From contig JADEYG010000009.1 in NCBI GenBank assembly GCA_016906335.1, forward strand, positions 62,001-126,000: 64,000 nt of DNA, in the 5' to 3' direction. The DNA comes from Novakomyces olei (taxonomy: Eukaryota). This document shows positions 3,290-53,668 of the stretch, in pieces (the stretch's first letter is position 1; the number at the start of each line of letters is the position of its first letter). Both the position numbers and the translations under genes were made by a program. The notes under the pieces are model-generated. The model searched no databases, was not told where the DNA came from, and was given only the letters and a program-made list of their open reading frames with translations.

Positions 3290-5086
3290 CTATCGTGCAA
3301 CCTGCAAAGCTATCTCCTTCACTACCTCAAACGCATTTATATAATCTTTTTCTGTCTGTAAAGTGCCGCCGCCCACAACGCGAATAGCTTTTATTCCATT
3401 AACATGATCATGGCCCAAAACTGTCATGCTTAAAAATATCCTTCCATCCTGGTTTATCCGGTCGTGAACTTTTTGTGTAATCGCATTCTCCACCTCATGA
3501 TCTGTCCCACACTTTGTTTCATCGCTATGGCTTGCACCATTCTCATAGTTATGGACGCCGTTTTCCTCTTTCCTCTGTAAAGGCCGCACGGAAAAGCAAG
3601 TTAGCCCAAACCGTGGTGGTGCCTGTAGTGCAAACAAATCCGGTTCGGACTTTATCAGATCCAAAAACACTTGTGCAGCTTTTAATGAACGTCTAATATG
3701 AGCCTGCAGCCCTTGAAGCCCATACGATCGCATAACGAACCAGATTTTCAAAGATCGGAACCGCCGACCCAACGGCACTTGCCAGTCCCTATAGTCGGTA
3801 ACGCGACCCGAGTCGGATAGCTGATTCCGAAGGTAAGGCGGATTTATCGACAAAGCTTTTGTCAAATCTGATTTATGCTTCACAAACATACAACTGCAGT
3901 CGAAATTAGTAAGAAGCCATTTGTGCATATTAACGTCAAACGAGTCGGCCTGCTCTAATTGAGCCGCAAGCGGATGAAATTCGGGGCAGATTAAAGCAGC
4001 TCCCGCGTAAGCAGCGTCTACATGCAGCCAAGTACTGCGTAAATCGGATTTCTGCTCTCTTTCCTTTTTATTTTCCGTCTCAAAGTCAGATATCACACCC
4101 GCGATCCCCGCAATATCGTCAACGGCACAACTTCCCGTAGTACCAAACGTGGCCGTTACAAAAAAGGGGATCAACCCACGCGACTTGCACTTGATCATAG
4201 TCTCGTGGAAACTTTGCGCTGTAACTTGCCAAGTTCCAGGGCACGATTTTATATTGAGATAGCGAACGCCGAGTATTTGCGCAGCTTTTTGTGTACAAGA
4301 ATGAGCTTGATCTGAGCCAAGAGCAATGAGCTTAGACTGAATTTCTGCACGGTGGTCATCCACTGCATCAGAACCGGCAATATCGTCATTATAGCTGCCA
4401 TCAAGATCAGTACCGTCTTGATCATTAACGTCCTTGTTTTTGCGCATAAAACAATATTTGCGTAAACACCGTTCGCGGGCGGCAATCATAGCGACTAACA
4501 CGGCTTCCGAAGCGCTGCCCTGGATCACGCCGCCCCCACTGGAAGTGGAAAGGAAATGATTGGGTAAATGGCACGCTTTAGCGAGCCAATCGAGCACGAT
4601 CGTTTCGAGTTCCGTTACAGCGGGCGAGCAGATGTAGTTGAATGAGATGGCATTAAACATATCGGAATACATATCGCCCAAGATTCCGGGAAAGCTCGAG
4701 TTTGCTGGGAAAAAGGCAAAAAAATTCGGGGATTGCCAGTGAGTGATACCGGGCTGTAATTTATCAGTCAATGCTGATTTCTCCAAGGCAAAATGCAAAA
4801 TCAAAGTATGTAACGAAAGTAAAAAGCTCTTACGACAATATATTTTTCGATATCTGCTTGAATGTCGCCCCATTGCTCGCCGTTTTGCGGTATTTGTTCT
4901 GGCAGACGCTGCCTTAAATAACCCGGGGTTACTTCTGAAAGGCATTGCAGCGAGGATACTTGTTCTCGATATTGTATAACTTTTTAGAGTCAGCAAACGC
5001 AATTGCTATTTCTTGTCTGTAAATATGCCACTCATACTCCTGTCAACGGCCGCGTAACCTGCTTTGCGAAACTCTTCTGCGTCCAT
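3290..5086 (-). CDS. PLP-dependent aromatic L-amino acid decarboxylase (group II)
   Basis: MDAEEFRKAGYAAVD start at 5086 with two short introns. Motifs PGITHWQSPNFFAFFP, GGGVIQGSASEA, WLHVDAAYAGA, DSFDVNMHKWLLTNFDCS (PLP lysine) and DWQVPLGRRFRSLKIW. Confidence 0.93.
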
Positions 5087-5357: not shown

Positions 5358-6438
5358 ATGTCAGCGCGGCTGTGGGACGTGACAATCCCGTCTTCGGCAA
5401 AGCACACAGCCACTATAATTTTTGCTCATGGTATAGGCATAACTAGGATTGCAATCTCAACACACATAGGTTTAGGCGATTCGGGGTCAGGATGGCAGTT
5501 TCTAGCTGGTTATTTGCGACAACATAAACTGTGTGAGCATGTCAAATTCATATTTCCCACTGCTCCTCAGCAGCGCGTGACTGTAAATATGGGGTAGGCT
5601 TTTGGGATACTATTATCAAGATAAATCTTTTCATTATCTTCAGTCTGCTCTTTTGATTCTTTACTGCTCTACTTTTTTCTCAATCCACCACGCTCCTTTA
5701 ATGCTTTGGCCGTACTAAAGGTTTCAGTATGCCAGCACGGTCGTGGTTTGATATCCACGATTTGGGCACGGACACTTCGTACAACCAGGACGACGTTTTA
5801 CAATCATCTCGCCTCGTTCAGCAAATTATAACTGCAGAGGCGGACGCTGGAATATCACCCGATCGTATCGTTGTGGGAGGCTTTTCACAAGGTTGAGATC
5901 TGCGCTTGGGTAGCATTCGCTAACCTTAATGTTTAGGCTGCGCCGTTTCTATGCTTGCTGCTTTGACTTATGAGCGGCGATTGGCTGGTAAGTTGAGATT
6001 ATCTCTTTGCAATAGAGAAGCTGATTTTTATTCCAGGAATAATCGGATTCTCAGGATTCCTACCATTGGAGACACGCATTCAAGCGGTGGGCTATAGCGA
6101 ATGTTTAATTAGGCGTTTGTGCTAATTGGGCAGATGGTCACGGACGCAAACAAAGGCATTCCCGTGTTTTTGGGTCACGGCACACAGGACGGCATTTTAC
6201 CGTTCTTATTAGCCGAACGTACGCGCGACGCGTTGAACAAAATTCTCAAGACACCCGTCGAGTTTCATGCTTACCACGGTATAAAAAGCAATTCTTTTCT
6301 GAATATTATTTTTATCTGTTGTTTTCTTTTCGCGTTCTTTGTTAGCTGACCCAGGAATCTACAGGCATGGATCATAGTGCGTCTCCGGAAGAGCTGGCTG
6401 ATGTAGCCAAGTTCATTACCCGTATTTTGCCCCAATAG
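5358..6438 (+). CDS. Acyl-protein thioesterase 1 / lysophospholipase (alpha/beta hydrolase), multi-exon
   Basis: Spliced motifs HTATIIFAHG-LGDSG, VKFIFPTAP, WFDI, RIVVGGFSQG (nucleophile), PVFLGHGTQD and YHG-MDHS. Stop TAG at 6436-6438. Confidence 0.9.
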
Positions 6439-7003
6439 TTGCTCATAGAGACCGATAGATATCTATTTAAAATTGTTTATCAACGTTTTTAGAGCTTTGA
6501 TTTAAATATGTAAAGCACTCGACTGATTATGATTATTATCGCTTATTATTTTCGCGGTGGGTTTTTTTTCACACATAATACGAACGACTGTAGCGTTACT
6601 TATATATTTCATTTGATAAATTTCATGAGGATATATCCGTCTCGAGTAATATTGGACGTGTAGTCGTATCGTATATAGTGAAAAAGAGACCGCATATGAG
6701 CCAATTTTAAAGTTCTTTAGCCGAAGAATTTGAGAGGAACTTGGAACGTTTTCCATCGCCAAATTTGTGTTGTCGAGTCATCCAATGATTGTGGCTTCTA
6801 CGATCGTCTACGTTTGTCTATCTTCTTCTACGATCACGTGCAGCAAACAATATCTGCGGGCCCATTAGCCAATGAGCGGGGAGACGTCCTGATCCGGATA
6901 TATGATGTCATCTCCGGATTTTGCACGAAGGATGGAGAGCGAAAGAGGCGGACTATAAATATGAGGTGGTCATCCTCACGGATACAATGATAAGCGTATC
7001 ATC

Positions 7004-7861: not shown

Positions 7862-9562
7862 TTACAAGCCATCTAAAACCTTCTCCTGTTCAACAATCGA
7901 AGTTTGGCCCGTCTTGTAAAGCAGATCGGCTTCATCTTCCAAGTATTGCTTTCCTTCCAGCACCGCCTTTTCAGGATCCACGAACAAAAGCAAGCAAAAC
8001 CCTAGGATTGTGCAAGGCAGTAAAAATGCAAATGCCATGTTTGTGTTGCCCCCACTCTTATCAATGATAGCCGATGTAATAAACGGGCCAATAAAAGCAC
8101 TCGTCTTCCCGGAAATCGTAAACAGGCTCCAAAACAAAAACATTTTGGGCCGTGGAACCAAATCCGAGAGAAAAGTGTAAGGTAGCTGGTACCATTGGCA
8201 CACAAGCAATCCAAAATATGCCTGATAAGCCCAAATTTCCCCCACATTCTTAAATCCCACGTGATGGGCCCAAATACCGATGAAGCCCCAAACGCAAAGG
8301 ATAACGATGCAGGCCACATTAAATAAAAGTACGGTCTTGGTGTGGAAGCGAAATTTTCTTTGACAGAGCCACATTATGAGCATCCCTGTGCCCTGTGTTC
8401 CAAAAGCCAATATTGTCATATAATTTAATTCAATTATAGAGTAGGAGATAACGCTATTTTGAAGTGTTCCAATCACGGTTACACACGTATTCAAAGAATC
8501 TGACAAGATGAAATAGGCCACGAGATAAATCGAGACGGCCTTGAGCCGTTTTAAATGTTTGATTGCCTGCCAAAGATTTACATAGCCAACCGTAGCAAAT
8601 GTTGTGCCTGGTGGTAACTTTTGCCCGGGTCTTTTTTGTTCCTTCAAGAACCAGGGGATCGCAAAGACTATCCAAATACCTGTTGTATAAGCAATGATAA
8701 CGTTGATGGCATTGGTATTTGTCGCCACATCACGGTTCGCATCTAGAGCAATTAAAATGCCTGCCCCAATGGCGAGTTGCACGACGGGTCCATAAGAAGT
8801 CCAAAGAAAAGCATAGTCTGCTATTTTATTGCGCTCAACCATATCAACCTCCATATACTCTCGTGGGCTCATTCGTCCTTCAACAACAGCCTTTTCATTG
8901 TCCTGCATATGCTTTTGATCACGAACGAGACCGGGCATTGCTGCTAAGAAATACGCGGTAGAATTGTTGAACATTACGTAACCAATTGCGTAAAGGGCAC
9001 ACGCGGCCTGCCAGTCTGCTCCTGTTCGAACTGCTAGCCAAGAAAACCCCACCCCCCACGAAATGACGCTAGTGACAACGCAGATCCATCGCCGCCATGA
9101 GCCATAATCGGCATATGCGCCGATAGTCAGACTGATCATCACCTGAATGGCAAATGAAATTCCCGAAATATCCAGTACAATTGCCGTAACCGGTTTAGGT
9201 GATCCCGCAAATGGGAGAACACATCGACCCGTCGAGCCACATGGGGCGTAGCCGTGAGGACCGCTTCCAACTTGATCGGGATTGTAACCCGCCTGAGCCA
9301 AAATGTTTTGCAGCTGGGACGGAGCATAGTTCCACAGCCCTATTCCCGTATTTCCAAAGTAATACAGATAGTAGCAAATCAATTCTAGTTTTGTCGTTGT
9401 TTTAGGAGGTTCTGAAGTTTTGGGAATGATATTGTCTTCATCTACAAGCGCTTGACCTGACGCATTCGCTTTTGCGTCTCGATCTATGAGAGTTACCACT
9501 TCTCCAGATTGTTGTTTGGACTCTGTGGAGAGCGGTTCAACCAAAGCTTTTGCGTTCTTCAT
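7862..9562 (-). CDS. Atg22-like MFS transporter (amino acid/small amide efflux family), intronless
   Basis: Single ORF with about 12 hydrophobic segments. Atg22-family motifs ISFAIQ, IGAYADYGSWRRW, RPGQKLPPG, YLVAYFILSDSLNT and SGKTSAFIGPFITSAI. Confidence 0.85.
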   Translation of the reverse strand: MKNAKALVEPLSTESKQQSGEVVTLIDRDAKANASGQALVDEDNIIPKTSEPPKTTTKLELICYYLYYFGNTGIGLWNYAPSQLQNILAQAGYNPDQVGSGPHGYAPCGSTGRCVLPFAGSPKPVTAIVLDISGISFAIQVMISLTIGAYADYGSWRRWICVVTSVISWGVGFSWLAVRTGADWQAACALYAIGYVMFNNSTAYFLAAMPGLVRDQKHMQDNEKAVVEGRMSPREYMEVDMVERNKIADYAFLWTSYGPVVQLAIGAGILIALDANRDVATNTNAINVIIAYTTGIWIVFAIPWFLKEQKRPGQKLPPGTTFATVGYVNLWQAIKHLKRLKAVSIYLVAYFILSDSLNTCVTVIGTLQNSVISYSIIELNYMTILAFGTQGTGMLIMWLCQRKFRFHTKTVLLFNVACIVILCVWGFIGIWAHHVGFKNVGEIWAYQAYFGLLVCQWYQLPYTFLSDLVPRPKMFLFWSLFTISGKTSAFIGPFITSAIIDKSGGNTNMAFAFLLPCTILGFCLLLFVDPEKAVLEGKQYLEDEADLLYKTGQTSIVEQEKVLDGL

Positions 9563-9697
9563 AGCCAACCGCCGTTCAAAGAGTGGGAGGGTAACGAGCG
9601 AGTGAGTGCCCGTTATATAAAAAGATTCTGTGCTGCTTTTTCGAAAGCTTAACGTTTATCAATCTACTTTTTATCAGCTTATCGTTCTTGCTGCTAT

Positions 9698-9710
9698 CTC
9701 CGTCGGCTGC
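9698..9710 (+). promoter_or_regulatory. Candidate Zn2Cys6 site CTCCGTCGGCTGC in the transporter/M24 divergent promoter
   Basis: Near-inverted copy at 10004-10016 (gcagccgaagggg) and an identical 10-mer at 13318-13327. It contains the CCG/CGG triplets typical of zinc-cluster sites. Several GATA/TATC cores lie nearby. Confidence 0.4.
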
Positions 9711-10168
9711 ATTCGCGTTCTGACAAGTCATTGACGATATGCCAAATTGGGCTGAGCGGAAGAACAGTATTAGCGATATCGAGTAAGTAGTATTGCGTTT
9801 CCCACATCCAATGATCCACCCGCCACAACAGGGGAGCCATGCGAGCAGCCAATCCTGTGCGGTTTGATAGGTGTCAATGATACTAACTAGTCAATTTATG
9901 CGTTTAACACTTTTCGCTTTAGCACGAAGCAAATTGTGGTTATAGAACAATAGGATTGCCTATTTCAGTACTGTTTTATTATTAGGTCGTCTCGTCCCAC
10001 CTCGCAGCCGAAGGGGCTACACCTTTTATTATATGTACACCTCTAGAATGTGTATCGAATATGATGTACATTAGATACACATGTCACAAGTGATAAGCGC
10101 CTCAACTGGTATCCCACGTATCGAGCACGTATATATCTAAACTACTCGCGGGCCCATAGTCAAGCGTA

Positions 10169-10903
10169 ATGTCTGTAGAAACAGTCGCCAAATGCGCTCT
10201 AGCATGCAATATCAAAGCCTCATTAGACAGCGAACAGTCGGTGGAGATATCGGACGAGCCTCCTCCCGGCTTAATTGAAGCCCAGCGTTTAGCAGTGCGT
10301 GTAGCAGAGCAAATCGTTCATCAAGTCCAGCCCGGTCAAACAGAAAAGGAAACGGTTCGTCAGGCAGACGATTTAATTCGTGAGCTGGGTGGTGCTGGAG
10401 TATGGACTCCCACCGTCGTTGGGTTTGGCATTGGAACACTCAGCTGTTTTCCAACTGACGTGCCGTCGGACCGCCCATTATGGAACATCGATCTGGGTCA
10501 CGTGGACGTCCATCCCATTACAAAAGCGGGATGGTGGGGAGATTGTACGCGGACACTTTACGTGGGCGGTAATCGGCCGCAGGGGAACGCGCTGGCTACT
10601 TTACAACGTATCCACAAACACGTTCTTGCATCGGCAACACCGGGAATGCGGGCTTGTGACCTTTTTGGGGTATTTGCTAAAGAGCTGGCAAAAACGGAAT
10701 ACGTTTTGCTCGACAGGCTACAAAATATCGGGCATTCATTAACTCAGAATTCATCATATGATTATGGCTACCTTGATGCCTATAATGAAACAGTTCTTGA
10801 AGGAGCATGGGCAATTGAGCCTTTCATTGGTAATCATTTGTACGGCGTAAAACTAGAAGACGTTTTATGGTTTGGTCCATCAAAAGTTACAGTGATCGAT
10901 TGA
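10169..10903 (+). CDS. M24-family (pita-bread fold) metallohydrolase, single domain, intronless
   Basis: 244 aa. Dimetal ligands appear in the expected order: VDVHP..WGDCTRT (D, D), IGHSL (H), AIEPF (E), KLEDV (E). There is no N-terminal creatinase/prolidase domain. Confidence 0.85.
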   Translation: MSVETVAKCALACNIKASLDSEQSVEISDEPPPGLIEAQRLAVRVAEQIVHQVQPGQTEKETVRQADDLIRELGGAGVWTPTVVGFGIGTLSCFPTDVPSDRPLWNIDLGHVDVHPITKAGWWGDCTRTLYVGGNRPQGNALATLQRIHKHVLASATPGMRACDLFGVFAKELAKTEYVLLDRLQNIGHSLTQNSSYDYGYLDAYNETVLEGAWAIEPFIGNHLYGVKLEDVLWFGPSKVTVID

Positions 10904-11084
10904 GATAATGAACTACATACCAAAAAAGATTTGAAAGTACCGAACAAAATCTCAGACAATTCCTATATGGCCTTTTATGAATCAGAGTTTCACAGCAAAT
11001 AGGTCACGTTGCGCTTTCCAAAGTAAAGTTCATTGAATAAACAAATTGAGTAAACAAAAGCACGCCGGAAAGCTCCAGTATATC

Positions 11085-12889
11085 TTAATTAATAAAGCTA
11101 GCAAATACATGCCTTATGAATGACTGTTCTGCCCGACGACTAAGAATTTCTCTAGGAGAAAGAGAAGCCTGGTATTTTCGAAAAACTTCGAGTTGAGGAA
11201 TAGTCCGCTTTGCGATGAATGTCCCCTTGTGAACTTGAAGCCAATCCCAAAACCTTGTAAATAATAATTGATAGTGCTCGACTTCAGGCTCTGAGCTTGC
11301 TGTTGAAAGCATTAGGCTTAGCACCGATCCAATTAAAGTCAGCGAATCCAGAGTCCCAATGTACCAAAATCCGTTCAAATGAGGCGTCTCTAAGGCTTCG
11401 AGATACTCTAACGCATTTATGATTCTCTTGTGGAGGGCAGAGCGACATAAATTTTGAATCTCTATTTTATCCTCATTCGCATTATTACACATTATCGTGA
11501 TTCGGCCAAGGGTAAGATTGGCAGCGTGGTAACATACCATTAAGCATGTTAAACCATATATTTCAGTGGAAGCGACGTTTAAACCATTCAACTTTATTCC
11601 CAAATCTTTGTTCCAGGTCGTGAGGCGAATTTGCAGAGGCTTGCAAGACTGCAAGTCAAAATTGACGGAACCGTCAGCGTTTCTAAACGGCCTCGTGGCA
11701 GAACTAAAAAGGTTAACCAAAAATTCAATTAATAAATGATAAAAATCAGATAAAAATATATAACAATATATTCTCTATTCCATTCTTACTAGAATTCTTC
11801 CAAAATCTGAGATATAATCTCGCTCAATTCCGCCAGTTTAAGAAACACCAAATTTTGCGCTCGGCTGGCAAGTGAGACATCCTCCGTTACGCCACTTTGC
11901 ACCAGATCAGATTCTTCCAAATTTCGAACGGCCCAATTAGAAGATGATATATGAGAAGGCGTTCCGTGAAACAAGGCCACCCATTTATCAGCAATATAAA
12001 TTGCCCAAGCCATTCTAATTCGCAATGACTTCTCCCATGCAGGTATAATCCAGGAAGAGCAATCTAGATGCAATCCTACAGCCTGGGCTTGCGCGACCAG
12101 CTGTGCAACCAATGTCCACGGTCGTCCCGTATCTTCCAAAGGTGATAGTAACATATTCAATAAACCTTGAATATCCGCCAATTTTGCACAAGATTTTGTA
12201 GCTGATTCTGCAATTAGCGATTTGCCGATATCCTTTAAGGGGAAGGCACTGGGCCTTTTTTCATTGCTTTCATGATCCCACCAGTCCAGAGCACAAGAAT
12301 ACATCCCGCACAGAGCCAACGGTGTGAAATAATGTCTGGTACGTTGAAACTTTTTTGCCCATATTTTCTCATCAAGAATAGGAAAACTGGGGTGAACGTA
12401 TTTGAAATATAGTTGGTTCAATTGGTCTGCATGAGGGTAAACTGCCTCTTCAATGCGTTTGAGGATATGATGTTTTGCCAACTCATCTTGTTGCGAATTT
12501 GATTGTATAAAAAAGCAAGAGTTTGGGTCGAATCGACGAACTTCTTCCCGCTCAGATAATCTCAGCTGGTCATTTTCAAATCTTATCAGATCAAAAGCGG
12601 CATTGCCAAAAGCACTACTCTGTCCATAAAAGTATGTGTCTTGCACAGAGTCCAAACTGAGGCTTTCGTTGATCCAAAACGTCTGAAATTCTTCGTCCCT
12701 GTCCCGGAAAAGGTCTCCTATCCGATCTTTTCGATCTCGCCACTTGGGTATGAGGGAATCATTTAATTCTAACGCGTCGCATTCGGTACCATGAAACGCG
12801 CACATTACACACGCCACTTCTGCTTCGCGTAAAACGCATCTGAGTTTCCGCCGTCGGCAGGCTGTGCAGGATGTCCATTTTCTAGGCAT
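11085..12889 (-). CDS. Zn2Cys6 transcription factor, Dal81/TamA-like (2 exons)
   Basis: Zinc cluster CTACRRRKLRC-x8-CVMCAFHGTEC. Fungal TF middle homology region YVHPSFPIL and DCSSWIIPAWEKSLRIRMAWAIYIADKWVALFHGTPSHI, which I recognise as Dal81/TamA-family-like. Intron at about 11710-11788. Confidence 0.85.
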
Positions 12890-13296: not shown

Positions 13297-13460
13297 TTGC
13301 CTATTTCGGGTTCCTGCCTCCGTCGGCGATTAGATCCCACGGATAGAATCCAAGCAATCTACCCACAAAGTAGGAGATAGCCCACACACCACGCAAATTA
13401 AATTGACGGCTACATTGGCGGCAACTTTAAGGGAGAACACAAAAGTCGCTTTCAATCTGC

Positions 13461-15563
13461 ATGGAGCCGTGGAGCAGTCGGGCTCAGCGAGCACAAAAGC
13501 AATGCATTGAATCAATTGATCCTCAGTTTTTATTAAAGAACATTTCTAGCAAGGACAAAGAAAATGCATTTGAATGCATGTCTCGTCGAGCAAACGAGAC
13601 AATGACGGAACAAGAACAGAACATGACGCTCCTTGACGTGTTTGATTTAACAAATAAGCTTGCAAGCGGGCAAATTACCTCAGAGGCGGTTGTAACGGCG
13701 TTTGCGAAACGAGCAGCCATTGCGCATCAGCTGACGAATTGTCTTACTCAGTTTTTTTACAACGACGGAGCATTGGAGCGAGCACGCCAGCTTGATAAGC
13801 ATTTACGAGAACACAAAAGTGTGGTTGGCCCATTGCACGGGCTTCCAATCAGTGTAAAGGACTGTTTTCATATTGAAGGGACGGAAACCTCTGCCGGATT
13901 TGTTACTTGGTTGGGGACAAAGTCGGTGGAGACTGCTGAACTTGTAAATATTCTTCGCAATGCTGGCGCAATTGTGCTCTGCAAGACTAACAATCCTCAG
14001 TAAGATCAGACCAAACATTCAAAGGAGTGATCTAAAAAATATTAAAACATGATCGAATTGCGCTTTAAAGAACAACTCAATTCGAAATCCATACTATTCC
14101 TTTTAAATATTTAATCTAATAGAAAGATCGCTTTTTTCAATCGAATGCGACAGCAATGCTCATGGACGGACTGTGAATCCTTATAATTTTCGGCTTAGTT
14201 CTGGAGGCTCGTCTGGAGGAGAAGGTGCTTTGATCAGTATGCACGGATCTCCTCTAGGTATTGGAGGGGTAATGAATTGCAAAAGTTCATCAAGCTTATG
14301 AATCGTTGCTTTTATTATTTTGGTTTAAAAATATCATTCTAATTATTAGGACAGCGGTGGATCGATCAGAAACCCAGCGGCGTCATGTGGGATTTATGGA
14401 TTTAAACCAACTTCTGGAAGAATTCCTCTTAAAGGCGCACGTGGCCCAATGGAAGGAAATGAAGCTCACACGGTATCGTCTGGACCAATGGCGTCTAGTC
14501 TCGCTTCCATCGAGATTTTTATGCGTACAGTTCTCGCAGCAAAACCATGGACAACAGATCCAGCATTAGTCGAAATACCCTGGCGGCAATTGCCTGTCGA
14601 TTTACCCGTTATTAAAGTAGGATTGATGGCTCACGACGGCTGTGTCCTGCCTATGCCGCCTATTGGGCGGGCCCTAGACCATTTGGCTTCAAAACTAAGG
14701 CAAAGTGCGCGCTTCGAAGTTGTGGAGTTTGAGACTTTTATGCAGTCTAAAATTAATCTTTTGATTGTGAGATGACTCTTAGTTTATTTATTTATTTATT
14801 TCAACATCTGATTATAAGTTTTAATGAAAATGATTTTCTTTGAATTCTTTTTTCAGTATGAACCTGTCTTTGCTAACAATAAATTAGCGGCGTCTGTTTA
14901 TGCCGGACGGAGGGAAAGACGTTCTCGACCACATTCTCGAATCTGGAGAGCCTATTGTTCCCTTGATTCAGTGGGCCCTAAAATCTCCTAATGCCAAACA
15001 GCTTTCTATGCATGAACTTTGGGATTGGACGCGGCAGCGACAGGAGTTTCAATTTGAATTTTTAAAGCATTGGAAAATGTTAGGCATTGATGTTCTCTTG
15101 TGTCCCTGTGCTCCTTGGCCAGCCGCCATACATGACACCTCGACCGTATGAATCAGATTTTTTATTACTTGGATATGCTTTGACTTTTAGAATTACTTTT
15201 ATTTTGATTTTATCCATATCAATGATTTCTCACTTTTTTAATGATGTAGTATTTTGGATACACGACATTATTCAATGTGCTTGACTACCCTGCAATCGCT
15301 TTCCCCACGGGACTCTTCTCGGACTCTGTCAAAGACAAAAAACCGGAAAGGGCATCGTTTTTATCCGCCGACGACAAAGAAATATATGATCGATGTGAGC
15401 TAATGGTTCTTTTTCCTTTTAGTTTGGATTAAAAAAGAATATTAACACGTCAGATGACCCGAATCTGTTTCACGGTTCACCAATCAGCCTTCAACTGGCG
15501 GCGCCTCGATGGCAGGATGAAAAGCTTTTGCATTGCTTGAAAGATATACTTGATCATTCTTAA
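13461..15563 (+). CDS. Amidase-signature family enzyme (AmdS/acetamidase-like), multi-exon
   Basis: AHQLTNCLT, GPLHGLPISVKD (catalytic Lys), KTNNPQ, SGGSSGGEGALI, G-DSGGSIRNPAA (catalytic Ser), FNVLDYPA and GSPISLQL..RWQDEK. Stop TAA at 15561-15563. Confidence 0.92.
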
Positions 15564-50765: not shown

Positions 50766-53668
50766 CTAACCGCAATATTTGTTCACTTTTGTTAGCAGTA
50801 GTTAACAAAAACAATATGGAAAATCAAGGAATTAAAGAGTCAAAATCAAAAAGACTTACATGGACAAAGCGCCACTGTTCCCATTTTTGCTCCACCGAGA
50901 CCAGCAAGTGTAAGAAGGGCGTTAGCGATACCGCCAACGCCTTCTCCGGCTGCCAGTCCAGCAGCAATCGCTATAGCGCGTAGTTCCCACCCGACAGGAT
51001 TATTTTTCCACCAGTAGTATGATATTAAAGCGCCAATCAGCCTGCGACGTTAGATTGAAGAGAAATCTAATAAATCAAATCAAGACGTAAAGAGACGGCA
51101 GAATCATACATCGCTGTAGAATAGCAAGTCTGTGGCAGAGTGAAAGCCAAACCGATAGCGTTCATATTTGGAACGTATTTTCTATGCTCAATCTGCACGT
51201 ATCGATACTTGATAACCACCGTGCTTACGCTGACTAAGCCCATTATTCCAGCAAAAGCAAGGCAGCTTCCGGGAATAGGAATCTCTTCGGCCGTAACTGC
51301 CTCGGCTACCACTCGCCAAGCTTGAACTGAAGGAATGGAAAAAGGGCAATTGTCGCTAGAAACTTGCAATATGCAAGGATAAGCAGATGCAAAGAGCAGG
51401 AAGAAAAGTGTACAAAGCCAAATAGAGCAAAAGGCTCCTACTATTTGTGCAACAAACTGGGCCCAAGGCGAAGCTTGCAGCAAGTATCCACTAGATTGTT
51501 AGACCAGATAAAACAGTAAACGATGGTGAATTGATAGGAAATATAAATATAAAAAAAATTAGTTAAATTTAATAAGTAAGATAAAACAAAATACATTGCT
51601 ATTTATTGACAAGGCTCAAAATCACGAGTTGAAGACAGCAAATATATATAAAGATAAAATTATAATGAAACCAATTACTATTATATTTTTGCTTTAGTAT
51701 TTCATTGTTTCATTGTTTTGTTGCTTTATTTATACTCACGTTTTCAAATCGCCCAGCATATCTACAGATTGTGAGGCTGCGCCGGCAGCAACAATTCCCC
51801 CCGTCAAATTCACTAATTGTGAAGCAGCCGCATCAAACCCGGACTGCAAGTGTGTAATCCCACCAAGAACAATTTGGCTTGCTTTAGCACAAGTCGTGAC
51901 AGGGTTTATATCGATAGTCCCAGAAGACTGAGCTGCAATTATACTGAAAACAAAGGCCAGTCCAATAGAAACAGCCGTAAGTAGGACAGGAACAGAATAT
52001 TGTGCACGTAAAACAACACATGTAAATACGATAGACAAGCAGGCTCCACCCGCCCAGGCCCAAGTGGGGACCTGTTCGCTTTCGGGCCTTGTATCTGTGA
52101 GTGCCCCGTGCGTATTTGCACCATTATCTTCGTTACTGCCCGCATCCACCGACTCACGGCCCAAATTCTGCATGGGAATTGATGAAAGAAACTGATAATT
52201 AACCCTAACCCTAGAAGTTCTGCGTCTCAGGGCCTCAGTGGCGGCAGAGACCAAAGGCCCCAGGTTCATTGCTACCTCAGCAAAAGAAGCAAAGAACAAA
52301 ATACCCACTCCAACCCAAAGGTTCCAGTATCTGGGAGAGGGAAGACTGTCTTCTGCAAGCTCCATACTTTCAAAGTTTTGCAAGCCAGATGCCTCGTCTA
52401 CAATCCGGCCAGTAGTAGCACCAAATGCCTTTACTATAGGCGCCACTATGACCCATGCAAACAGAGAGCCTCCAAAAAACGAGAGAGATGCATTTAAACC
52501 TGAAAGAACTCCAGCCCCGAAAAAGGCCGGAGTCATTTCGATCACCCAGTTCCAACTTTCTAGCCAAACTGCCAATTTCCAGCCTGTCAGGCGGTAGAGC
52601 CACCAAAAAACATGAAGGTTGTATACAATTCCGGGAGCGTACTGAGCAAAAACTACAAAGCCAGTGGCTGAGCAAAAGGCATAGGTTAAAGCCTGGGCTT
52701 TAAGAAGTGCAGTTTCTGCTCCACGGGTAGCGTCCACGTGAAAAGCACGGATCGTGTGTGCAACGGCTGTTGGTGTCGGGAATACCAACTTCATATGTAA
52801 AATGTAAAGCTTTCTCAGTGGTACTGCAAAGAATAGGCCATAGTAAGCCGAGCTCACGGAGAACGTTATAAGCTGGTGGATTAGAAGATTGTGAAATTGT
52901 ATAAAATCATTTTGTGGAGGGCAATTGCATTGTTTTAGTCTCAATAAGCACCCTTTCATTTCATCAATCAAATGGCTTTTCTGTCTGTTTGTTTTTAATT
53001 CTTGGTTTATTATAATCGTTTTATTTCTTCCTGGGTTACTCCCGCTTACCCTCCAAAAATCATCGGCTGGTCTTTCCGATAAAAGACCCAGTTGGTACAT
53101 TGCTGGCACAGCACCAATGTATATAATACCTAGCGAACCGGCTGCGCTTGCTGCCGTTTGTACCGTGACCTATACGATGTAAGCCAAAGAATCAATAGGG
53201 CTAATCAAGGCGGCACACAGCCCATACTGGAATGGCCTGGTGGGCAGGAAAAGAAAAGCCAGTAATAAAGACGTTGTAATTTTAAGAGTACCTACATTTT
53301 CCTTTGGGCCAAAGTATCCGCCGCCCAGGTACGTTGGTGCTCGAGTAGCGATATTGCGTAGAATAACAAACCCGAGAATAGCTCCAAACAACGACGAGCC
53401 AAACGTCCAGCCCGTTTTCAAGCCTAAATAAATACTAGAGAACAATAAGCGTAGCAACTGAGTGAACTGCTTACTTTGACGCAGAGACAATCGCTCCCAG
53501 CGCACAGCCAACGAGCACGGCTCTAATGCTTAATTGCGATTCTTCTACCGTCCCATCGTCGGGAAAAGGCGCACACGGGTCAATTGGAGCTGGAGGCTCA
53601 GGATCGTAGTCGAAATCTGATAGAATATCGCCGTCAGAGTCATCGCCGTCCGTTGTCCCGCTTTTCAT
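50766..53668 (-). CDS. OPT-superfamily (YSL-like) oligopeptide/metal-chelate transporter, multi-exon
   Basis: QLSIRAVLVG..ASN-IYLGLKTGWTFG, FGPKEN, VPAMYQLGLL, LVFPTPTAVA, DINPVTTCAKASQ, DMLGDLKT, AGLAAGEGVGG and C-terminal CPLNKYCG. Confidence 0.9.

Follow-up and report, generated by a model that had tools for sequence, protein, structure and literature searches.

An intronless M24 gene in a fungal chromosome

The DNA analyzed here, referred to as the window, is a stretch of 64,000 nucleotides from Novakomyces olei (GenBank assembly GCA_016906335.1, contig JADEYG010000009.1, positions 62,001 to 126,000, forward strand; coordinates below count from its first nucleotide). It contains a gene for a metallohydrolase of peptidase family M24, which, on the evidence presented below, was very probably acquired by the fungus from a bacterium through horizontal transfer. 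The gene is preceded by a gene for an ATG22-like transporter of the major facilitator superfamily (MFS) and followed by one for a Zn2Cys6 transcription factor (Table 1).

Table 1. Coordinates of the M24 gene and of the other features of the window considered in this study
Feature	Position	Strand	Details
PLP (pyridoxal phosphate)-dependent decarboxylase (PF00282)	3290-5005	-	Single open reading frame (ORF), 571 aa
ATG22-like MFS transporter	7862..9562	-	Single ORF, 566 aa; PF11700, E value 4e-108, profile positions 1-480 of 482
Intergenic region	9563..10168	.	606 bp between the divergent ATG22-like and M24 genes; GC content 44.1%
M24 metallohydrolase ORF	10169..10903	+	ATG to TGA, 244 aa, intronless
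Zn2Cys6 / Fungal_trans transcription factor	11085..12889	-	572 aa; PF00172, PF04082; convergent with the M24 gene
Amidase-signature gene (PF01425), first exons	13431..14775	+	At least three exons; pieces 13431-14003 (profile positions 2-102) and 14350-14775 (profile positions 150-277)
OPT oligopeptide transporter	51736-53169	-	Further from the M24 gene

An earlier note, made from the letters of the window alone, had described an intronless ORF of 244 aa, and this is exactly what is found: the frame is closed upstream by an in-frame stop (10157-10159) directly before the ATG. The same note considered the neighborhood to be intron rich, which holds for only part of it. The Zn2Cys6 gene does carry an intron of 86 nt (11704-11789, GTAAGA..TTTTAG; the resulting coding sequence of 1,719 nt has no internal stops), and the amidase gene is split, but the genes for the ATG22-like transporter and the decarboxylase are themselves single long ORFs, so that missing introns are, taken alone, weak evidence of a foreign origin.

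A Pfam scan of the protein returned PF00557 (Peptidase_M24; E value 1.5e-18; 67.8 bits against a cut-off of 23), matching residues 37 to 232 with profile positions 5 to 203 of 208, and no second domain. With only 36 residues preceding this match, the first 20 of which are modeled with low confidence, the N-terminal creatinase/prolidase domain is absent, as had been claimed, and matches to prolidases in the PDB begin at about residue 130 of their chains. Instead, residues 1 to about 25 form a poorly conserved, low-confidence N-terminal extension of 20 to 25 residues that is specific to the fungal side; bacterial orthologues lack it and start at about query residue 26. Finally, the motif run on which the earlier note had relied could be located in the translation in all its quoted pieces (VDVHP, WWGDCTR, LDRLQNIGHS, IEPFI, and GVKLEDVLWF).

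Family membership, fold, and metal site

All five predicted metal ligands are in place. In both pairwise and profile alignments, D113, D125, H189, E217, and E230 correspond to D209, D220, H284, E313, and E327 of P. furiosus prolidase (1pv9; E value of the family profile, 8.9e-21). Four of the five are invariant in an alignment of 48 family members, and D113 is conserved in at least 90% of them; the fungal protein also keeps the family-invariant residues E59, W79, D125, D182, N186, H189, N206, W214, E217, P218, and E230. An AlphaFold2 model built on the family alignment reached a mean predicted local distance difference test score (pLDDT) of 93.3 and a predicted template modeling score of 0.87, with a pLDDT of about 51 to 53 for residues 1 to 20. 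When this model was compared with the PDB by Foldseek, 238 matches were obtained at an E value of ≤0.001, and all 49 that were listed are M24 enzymes. The top matches are prolidases and Xaa-Pro peptidases (query-based TM-score [TMq], 0.75 to 0.79; root mean square deviation [rmsd], 2.2 to 2.9 Å; 22 to 24% identity), with methionine aminopeptidases and creatinases ranking below them. By its PF00557 score, its five ligands, and its pita-bread fold, the protein is thus a member of family M24.

Since prolidases and Xaa-Pro peptidases are its nearest neighbors of known structure, in sequence as in fold, and the five ligands are kept, the enzyme might be taken for an ordinary Xaa-Pro dipeptidase (MEROPS M24B; 1pv9, P. 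horikoshii 1wy2, and Deinococcus 5cdl) that merely lacks the N-terminal domain; relatives have indeed been named "Xaa-Pro aminopeptidase" or "Xaa-Pro dipeptidase" by JGI's automatic annotation. The two do share the catalytic pita-bread fold and the ligands, but M24B prolidases have the additional domain and a length of about 350 aa. Moreover, the helper histidines of prolidase (H192, H280, and H291 in P. furiosus), which we take to act in substrate binding and catalysis, are replaced by T96, Q185, and S196, positions that are not histidine in the family consensus either. No specific NCBIfam model matched the protein, with the PepQ equivalog (NF040821) scoring 27 bits against a cut-off of 630. 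Together with the genomic context of the bacterial relatives (see below), these differences make an ordinary prolidase unlikely.

Two other M24 enzymes were considered and rejected. Type 1 methionine aminopeptidase (MetAP; M24A, E. coli 2mat) likewise consists of one pita-bread domain, is of comparable size, and has these five ligands as well (TMq, 0.68 to 0.75), but its phmmer E value was only about 1e-4, and its rmsd was 3 to 5.7 Å, compared to the 2.2 to 2.9 Å of prolidases. In addition, the NCBIfam result contained no MetAP model, and when 201 genomes from the bacterial family of one carrier were sampled, just 3 had an orthologue; MetAP is, to our knowledge, universal. Creatinase, in turn, begins with a creatinase domain and has no metal in its active site, whereas the fungal protein lacks this domain and has all metal ligands; the creatinase entries 1kp0 and 1chm occupied only ranks 22 and 35 of the Foldseek list.

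The closest precedent, likened by description, is the dimethylsulfoniopropionate (DMSP) lyase DddP, which is presented (PMC4108388, citing Todd et al. 2009) as a bacterial-type enzyme of the M24 fold with a nonpeptide substrate, found in marine bacteria and in some ascomycetes (Fusarium and Aspergillus). According to the same text, DddP carries an additional N-terminal domain. No DddP entry was among the 49 Foldseek matches listed.

Relatives in fungi and bacteria

A homology search of 5.8 billion protein clusters yielded 277 matches, of which the best 120 were listed. Three named fungi are among these: Cadophora sp. DSE1049 (PVH79416.1; 73% identity), Hyaloscypha variabilis (KAN0099261.1; 72%), and Exophiala viscosa (KAI1621881.1; 70%). 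Bacterial-type relatives, mostly from Actinomycetota, are 60 to 71% identical across the whole domain, with the top ones at 70 to 71%; the named ones among the best 120, proteins of about 223 aa annotated as "M24 family metallopeptidase" in Micromonospora, Salinibacterium, Microbacterium, Kineococcus, Propionicimonas, and Mesorhizobium, are 64 to 69% identical. The C-terminal motif GVK[LM]ED[VL]LW[FL]G separates the two types, being present in 8 of the best 120 matches (hereafter called fungal type), with a bacterial form in the other 112. In a protein atlas, too, the nearest clusters are bacterial M24 proteins. The resemblance to small bacterial M24 proteins on which the earlier note had based its suspicion is therefore borne out, and the broad, vertically inherited fungal clade that it had named as a contrary outcome was not seen in this one protein database.

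Other searches place the gene in a sparsely distributed family. HMMER scanning of 1.84 billion representatives returned 8 clusters at an E value of ≤1e-30 and 30 at ≤1e-10, which marks the family as small and tight. When 185,579 prokaryote species genomes were scanned with a pattern, 40 loci were recovered (36 in Actinomycetota and 4 in Pseudomonadota; 44 to 69% identity), and the 3 carriers in 201 genomes mentioned above identify it as a rare accessory gene in bacteria as well. A metagenome scan with the relative P0005, aimed at the contigs of fungal-type relatives, produced only loci of ≤68% identity (L041-L059). For this M24 subfamily, or for its transfer to fungi, nothing was found in the literature at the level of titles and abstracts.

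In the bacterial loci, the gene has regular company. A GATase1_like gene (PF07090), sought by tblastn with representatives, is present in 36 of the 40. In 29 loci it directly adjoins the M24 gene and has the same orientation, and in another six a tandem M24 paralogue lies between the two. The four Pseudomonadota loci (L016-L019) all lack it; there, BtpA is located directly upstream of M24, followed in L016 by an MFS gene downstream. Tandem M24 paralogues (at about 5364-6074 and 6001-6681) were observed downstream of GATase1_like in the Thermoleophilia/Gaiellaceae loci L035-L040, the upstream copy being 37 to 40% identical to the query, and L021 and L022 have a second, more distant M24 copy a few kilobases away. 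The surrounding operons are of two types, one containing an ATP-binding cassette (ABC) transporter of the SsuA/NMT1 type, LacI, CN_hydrolase, and an ArgE/DapE-like M20 hydrolase (15 to 23 loci per component), and the other containing an energy-coupling factor (ECF) transporter, a PfkB kinase, and a BtpA-family protein (15 to 17 loci per component). Such uptake operons with other C-N hydrolases point to salvage or catabolism of a small nitrogen compound, and it is this context of small-molecule uptake, with CN_hydrolase, M20, PfkB, and BtpA rather than peptide metabolism, that speaks further against a prolidase. Neither the function of PF07090 nor the combination of GATase1_like and M24 was found in the literature at the title or abstract level, and a complex predicted for the bacterial pair of L010 scored 0.00, which gives no reading either way on binding.

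In summary, the uncharacterized bacterial M24 protein of about 223 aa encoded next to GATase1_like represents the fungal protein's own family: the same residues are invariant, and the fungal protein is nested in its tree. The fungal copies differ from it in their N-terminal extension, their own C-terminal motif, and their fungal codon composition, and, in the window, the uptake-operon genes that accompany the bacterial proteins are replaced as neighbors by a eukaryotic ATG22-like transporter.

Integration of the gene in the fungal chromosome

A gene whose protein has bacterial affinity in an otherwise fungal assembly might simply reflect bacterial contamination or a chimeric contig. Apart from that affinity, this explanation could draw on the fact that, of the two public sequencing runs containing the stretch, one (X1) is possibly that from which the window itself derives and hence not independent. 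The second run (X2), from another study, nevertheless yielded contigs that are identical to the window, with 0 differences, and span both ends of the ORF: one (record 4, 10003-10329) runs from the intergenic region into the M24 ORF, and the other (10558-11352) crosses its 3' end. Because these independent contigs bridge both junctions, contamination or chimerism is unlikely, and the chimeric assembly that the earlier note had listed as a possible undoing of its proposal was not seen.

Base composition leads to the same result. The M24 ORF has a GC content of 48.6%, and of 42.0% at third codon positions (GC3), within the GC3 range of four neighboring genes (40.7 to 45.5%), whereas 9 of 10 sampled bacterial orthologues have a GC3 of 71 to 94% (the tenth, from Bifidobacterium aquikefiri, has 40%). 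The flanks consist of AT-rich intergenic DNA beside intron-bearing genes, and eukaryotic housekeeping genes are found on both sides in the window (Sgf11, HSP9/12, DEAD-box helicases, a GATA factor, and Nup35, as well as Dus, a class I Glu/Gln tRNA synthetase, ZPR1, and CCT). Similarly, the named fungal orthologues are located on contigs of 0.29, 1.35, and 2.9 Mb. With regard to cotransferred bacterial genes, a tblastn search of the window with 23 bacterial neighbor families matched only the M24 ORF itself; the GATase1_like, ABC/ECF, CN_hydrolase, M20, PfkB, and BtpA neighbors are all absent. All in all, we regard contamination or misassembly as extremely improbable.

Phylogenetic placement

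Two maximum-likelihood trees were computed, a quick one with 84 rows and a careful one with 65 rows (LG+C20+F+G4, posterior mean site frequency model), with eight paralogues, tandem or second copies found at the same bacterial loci, as the root of both. Supports are given as ultrafast bootstrap/Shimodaira-Hasegawa-like approximate likelihood ratio test (SH-aLRT) values. In agreement with the check that the earlier note had proposed, all fungal-type rows are situated deep within Actinomycetota in both trees. Four nested branches (100/96, 98/95, 100/98, and 99/99) enclose the nine rows of this type in the careful tree, and outside of them Thermoleophilia/Gaiellaceae, then Acidimicrobiaceae with Mycobacterium, and then Streptomycetaceae/Sporichthyaceae form successive layers. 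The identity gradient of the window protein agrees with this nesting, declining from 64 to 69% (Microbacteriaceae, Micromonospora, and Rhizobiales copies) to 53% (Mycobacterium) and 47% (Gaiellaceae).

Within the careful tree, the nine fungal-type rows are joined with two Bifidobacterium copies in one clade (93/99). These copies (L020 and L024, from B. aquikefiri and B. psychraerophilum; match at 6001-6675) have a low GC content and are part of a complete bacterial operon; they are 57 to 59% identical to the fungal copies and 54 to 55% identical to other bacterial ones. The join may be an artifact of long-branch or compositional attraction, given their long stem (1.05) and low GC content, or it may be a clue to the donor lineage. 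Once these rows were removed, the fungal rows formed one clade (SH-aLRT, 100) within a crown clade of 38 rows (99), and the nested branches around them had supports of 99 and 99. Inside the actinobacterial crown clade, we also observed the four copies from Pseudomonadota (L016-L019, Rhizobiales-like), which group together with full support (100/100); their nested position suggests a transfer between bacterial phyla.

The named carriers belong to different classes, Cadophora and Hyaloscypha being Helotiales and Exophiala belonging to Chaetothyriales, which raises the possibility that each fungal lineage received its copy in a separate transfer. The quick tree, which leaves the Exophiala rows P0006 and P0009 unresolved beside the main fungal group, is in line with this, as is the free topology of the careful tree, which needs two changes of the fungal label (a single change in 52% of the bootstrap trees). 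However, fungal monophyly was not rejected by the approximately unbiased (AU) test (p 0.431) and, without Bifidobacterium, has the high support given above, while the fungal-type C-terminal motif is common to all eight fungal-type matches and absent from the remaining 112. Furthermore, the same eukaryotic ATG22-like gene is the neighbor of M24 in the window and in E. viscosa, an arrangement that independent transfers would not yield. Several transfers therefore appear improbable to us, and a single acquisition would fit the tree.

Some observations weigh against the reading of the gene as a bacterial acquisition that was then maintained in fungi. First, a topology that unites the 48 bacterial orthologues in one clade excluding the fungi, 20.8 log-likelihood units worse, has an AU p value of 0.058; as a borderline case, it is not formally rejected at 0.05. 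Second, the root consists of long-branch paralogues, and long branches meet at the root. Third, with Bifidobacterium removed, the sister branch of the fungal clade has a support of just 36. As for the distribution, the fungal side was seen through one protein database, with 8 fungal-type proteins among the best 120 matches, and 5 of these 8 are metagenome or Logan proteins assigned to fungi by motif and tree position only. Additionally, the Hyaloscypha variabilis copy (P0020) has glycine in place of the ligand D113 and tyrosine in place of H115, a shorter N terminus, and the longest fungal branch (0.36 to 0.37); this copy may be decaying or misannotated, and not every fungal copy has thus been maintained. 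Finally, the window contains no GATase1_like gene, the partner of the bacterial enzymes, and the fungal protein may therefore function in another way than they do.

The first of these points, together with the fungal base composition of the M24 gene, could also be explained by an ancient gene that was inherited vertically in fungi and lost from nearly all lineages. Such a history is difficult to reconcile with the relationships among the bacterial copies, as those of Microbacteriaceae, Micromonospora, and Rhizobiales are 64 to 69% identical to the fungal ones but only about 46 to 53% identical to those of Gaiellaceae and Mycobacterium. Nor does it fit the four nested, supported branches between the fungi and the root or the retrieval of just 8 fungal-type proteins among the best 120 from so large a database, and we deem it highly improbable. 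Bacterial origin by horizontal transfer, the inference of the earlier note, is instead what the 60 to 71% identity of bacterial relatives, the nesting in Actinomycetota, the ameliorated composition, and the bridged junctions jointly argue for. The donor was most likely a crown lineage of Actinomycetota near Micrococcales, and capture by an ascomycete probably occurred once.

The divergent ATG22-like transporter gene

The ATG22-like protein has its best match in Exophiala viscosa (74% identity), and the accessions of the two E. viscosa proteins are consecutive (KAI1621880.1 and KAI1621881.1; also XP_062667767.1 and XP_062667768.1) on one contig of 1,351,285 bp. At least the window and E. viscosa thus have the gene pair in common. 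Further close matches of the transporter are located on contigs of 12,568 and 4,444 bp, which are the sizes of the contigs carrying the M24 matches P0002 and P0004, so that the pair is probably present on these two metagenomic contigs, too. Among the transporter matches, no contig corresponded in length to those of the remaining five fungal-type M24 matches. Overall, the transporter has a handful of close matches (55 to 74%), with other named ones at 40 to 46%, mostly Atg22 of Basidiomycota; it therefore seems to share the patchy distribution of the M24 gene. The transporter in the window is a divergent paralogue, a second Atg22-family protein of E. viscosa being only 44% identical to it.

The intergenic region between the two genes presumably serves as a shared promoter region. 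Several GATA-type sites can be spotted in it by eye (e.g., TGATAAG near 10090), and its repeats are restricted to short two-copy matches.

The earlier note had speculated that the M24 enzyme might be the core around which a gene cluster was assembled. This idea is borne out in part, by the transporter, which is codistributed with the M24 gene and adjacent to it in E. viscosa. The Zn2Cys6 regulator is not supported as a further member of the module, since its first exon has no relative above 39% identity and no relative on an M24-bearing contig, and no polyketide synthase or nonribosomal peptide synthetase genes were present among the window ORFs scanned. Other nitrogen-related genes in the vicinity are those for the PLP-dependent decarboxylase and the amidase-signature enzyme, with the OPT transporter gene at a greater distance.

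Proposed history and function

On the basis of these findings, we propose that a stand-alone M24 catalytic domain passed from a bacterium to an ancestor of a few ascomycete lineages. After the transfer, the gene would have gained its short N-terminal extension and drifted toward fungal base composition while remaining under selection, as indicated by the retention of the five metal ligands and all family-invariant residues.

For the enzymatic reaction, the kind of substrate, and the part played by the transporter, we infer the following. D113, D125, H189, E217, and E230 would hold a dinuclear metal center that activates water, which would then cleave a C-N bond (amide, peptide-like, or amidine) in a small nitrogen compound. 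This compound would be delivered to the enzyme by the ATG22-like transporter; as the two genes are adjacent and divergent in both the window and E. viscosa, transporter and hydrolase are probably the working unit. The replacement of the helper histidines by T96, Q185, and S196 and the presence of other C-N hydrolases in the bacterial operons suggest a substrate other than ordinary Xaa-Pro peptides. Taken as a whole, this scenario of bacterial acquisition, amelioration, selection, pairing with a transporter, and C-N hydrolysis at a dinuclear metal site seems likely to us.

A bolder extension, which we consider doubtful, would be that the M24 and ATG22-like genes form a small mobile "import and cleave" cassette that has moved between distant soil and root ascomycetes, namely, Helotiales, Chaetothyriales, and the lineage of the window, and gives them access to a nitrogen compound for which rare actinobacterial operons (GATase1_like and M24, with ECF or ThiY-like ABC uptake) would otherwise be the only salvage route. 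If this were true, the fungal pair would be the simplest handle on the substrate of an uncharacterized bacterial pathway.

The event is thus of a known kind, a bacterium-to-fungus transfer, in an uncharacterized subfamily of M24 enzymes. Few such transfers have been documented in detail, and the present case is unusually clean, combining 60 to 71% identity to the donor side, full amelioration, and conserved pairing with a eukaryotic transporter. Its practical value is modest, as a candidate for enzyme discovery and as a worked example for catalogues of horizontal gene transfer. As for the fungi themselves, the named carriers are associated with roots and soil, and possession of the gene may thus point to a nutrient source specific to that niche.

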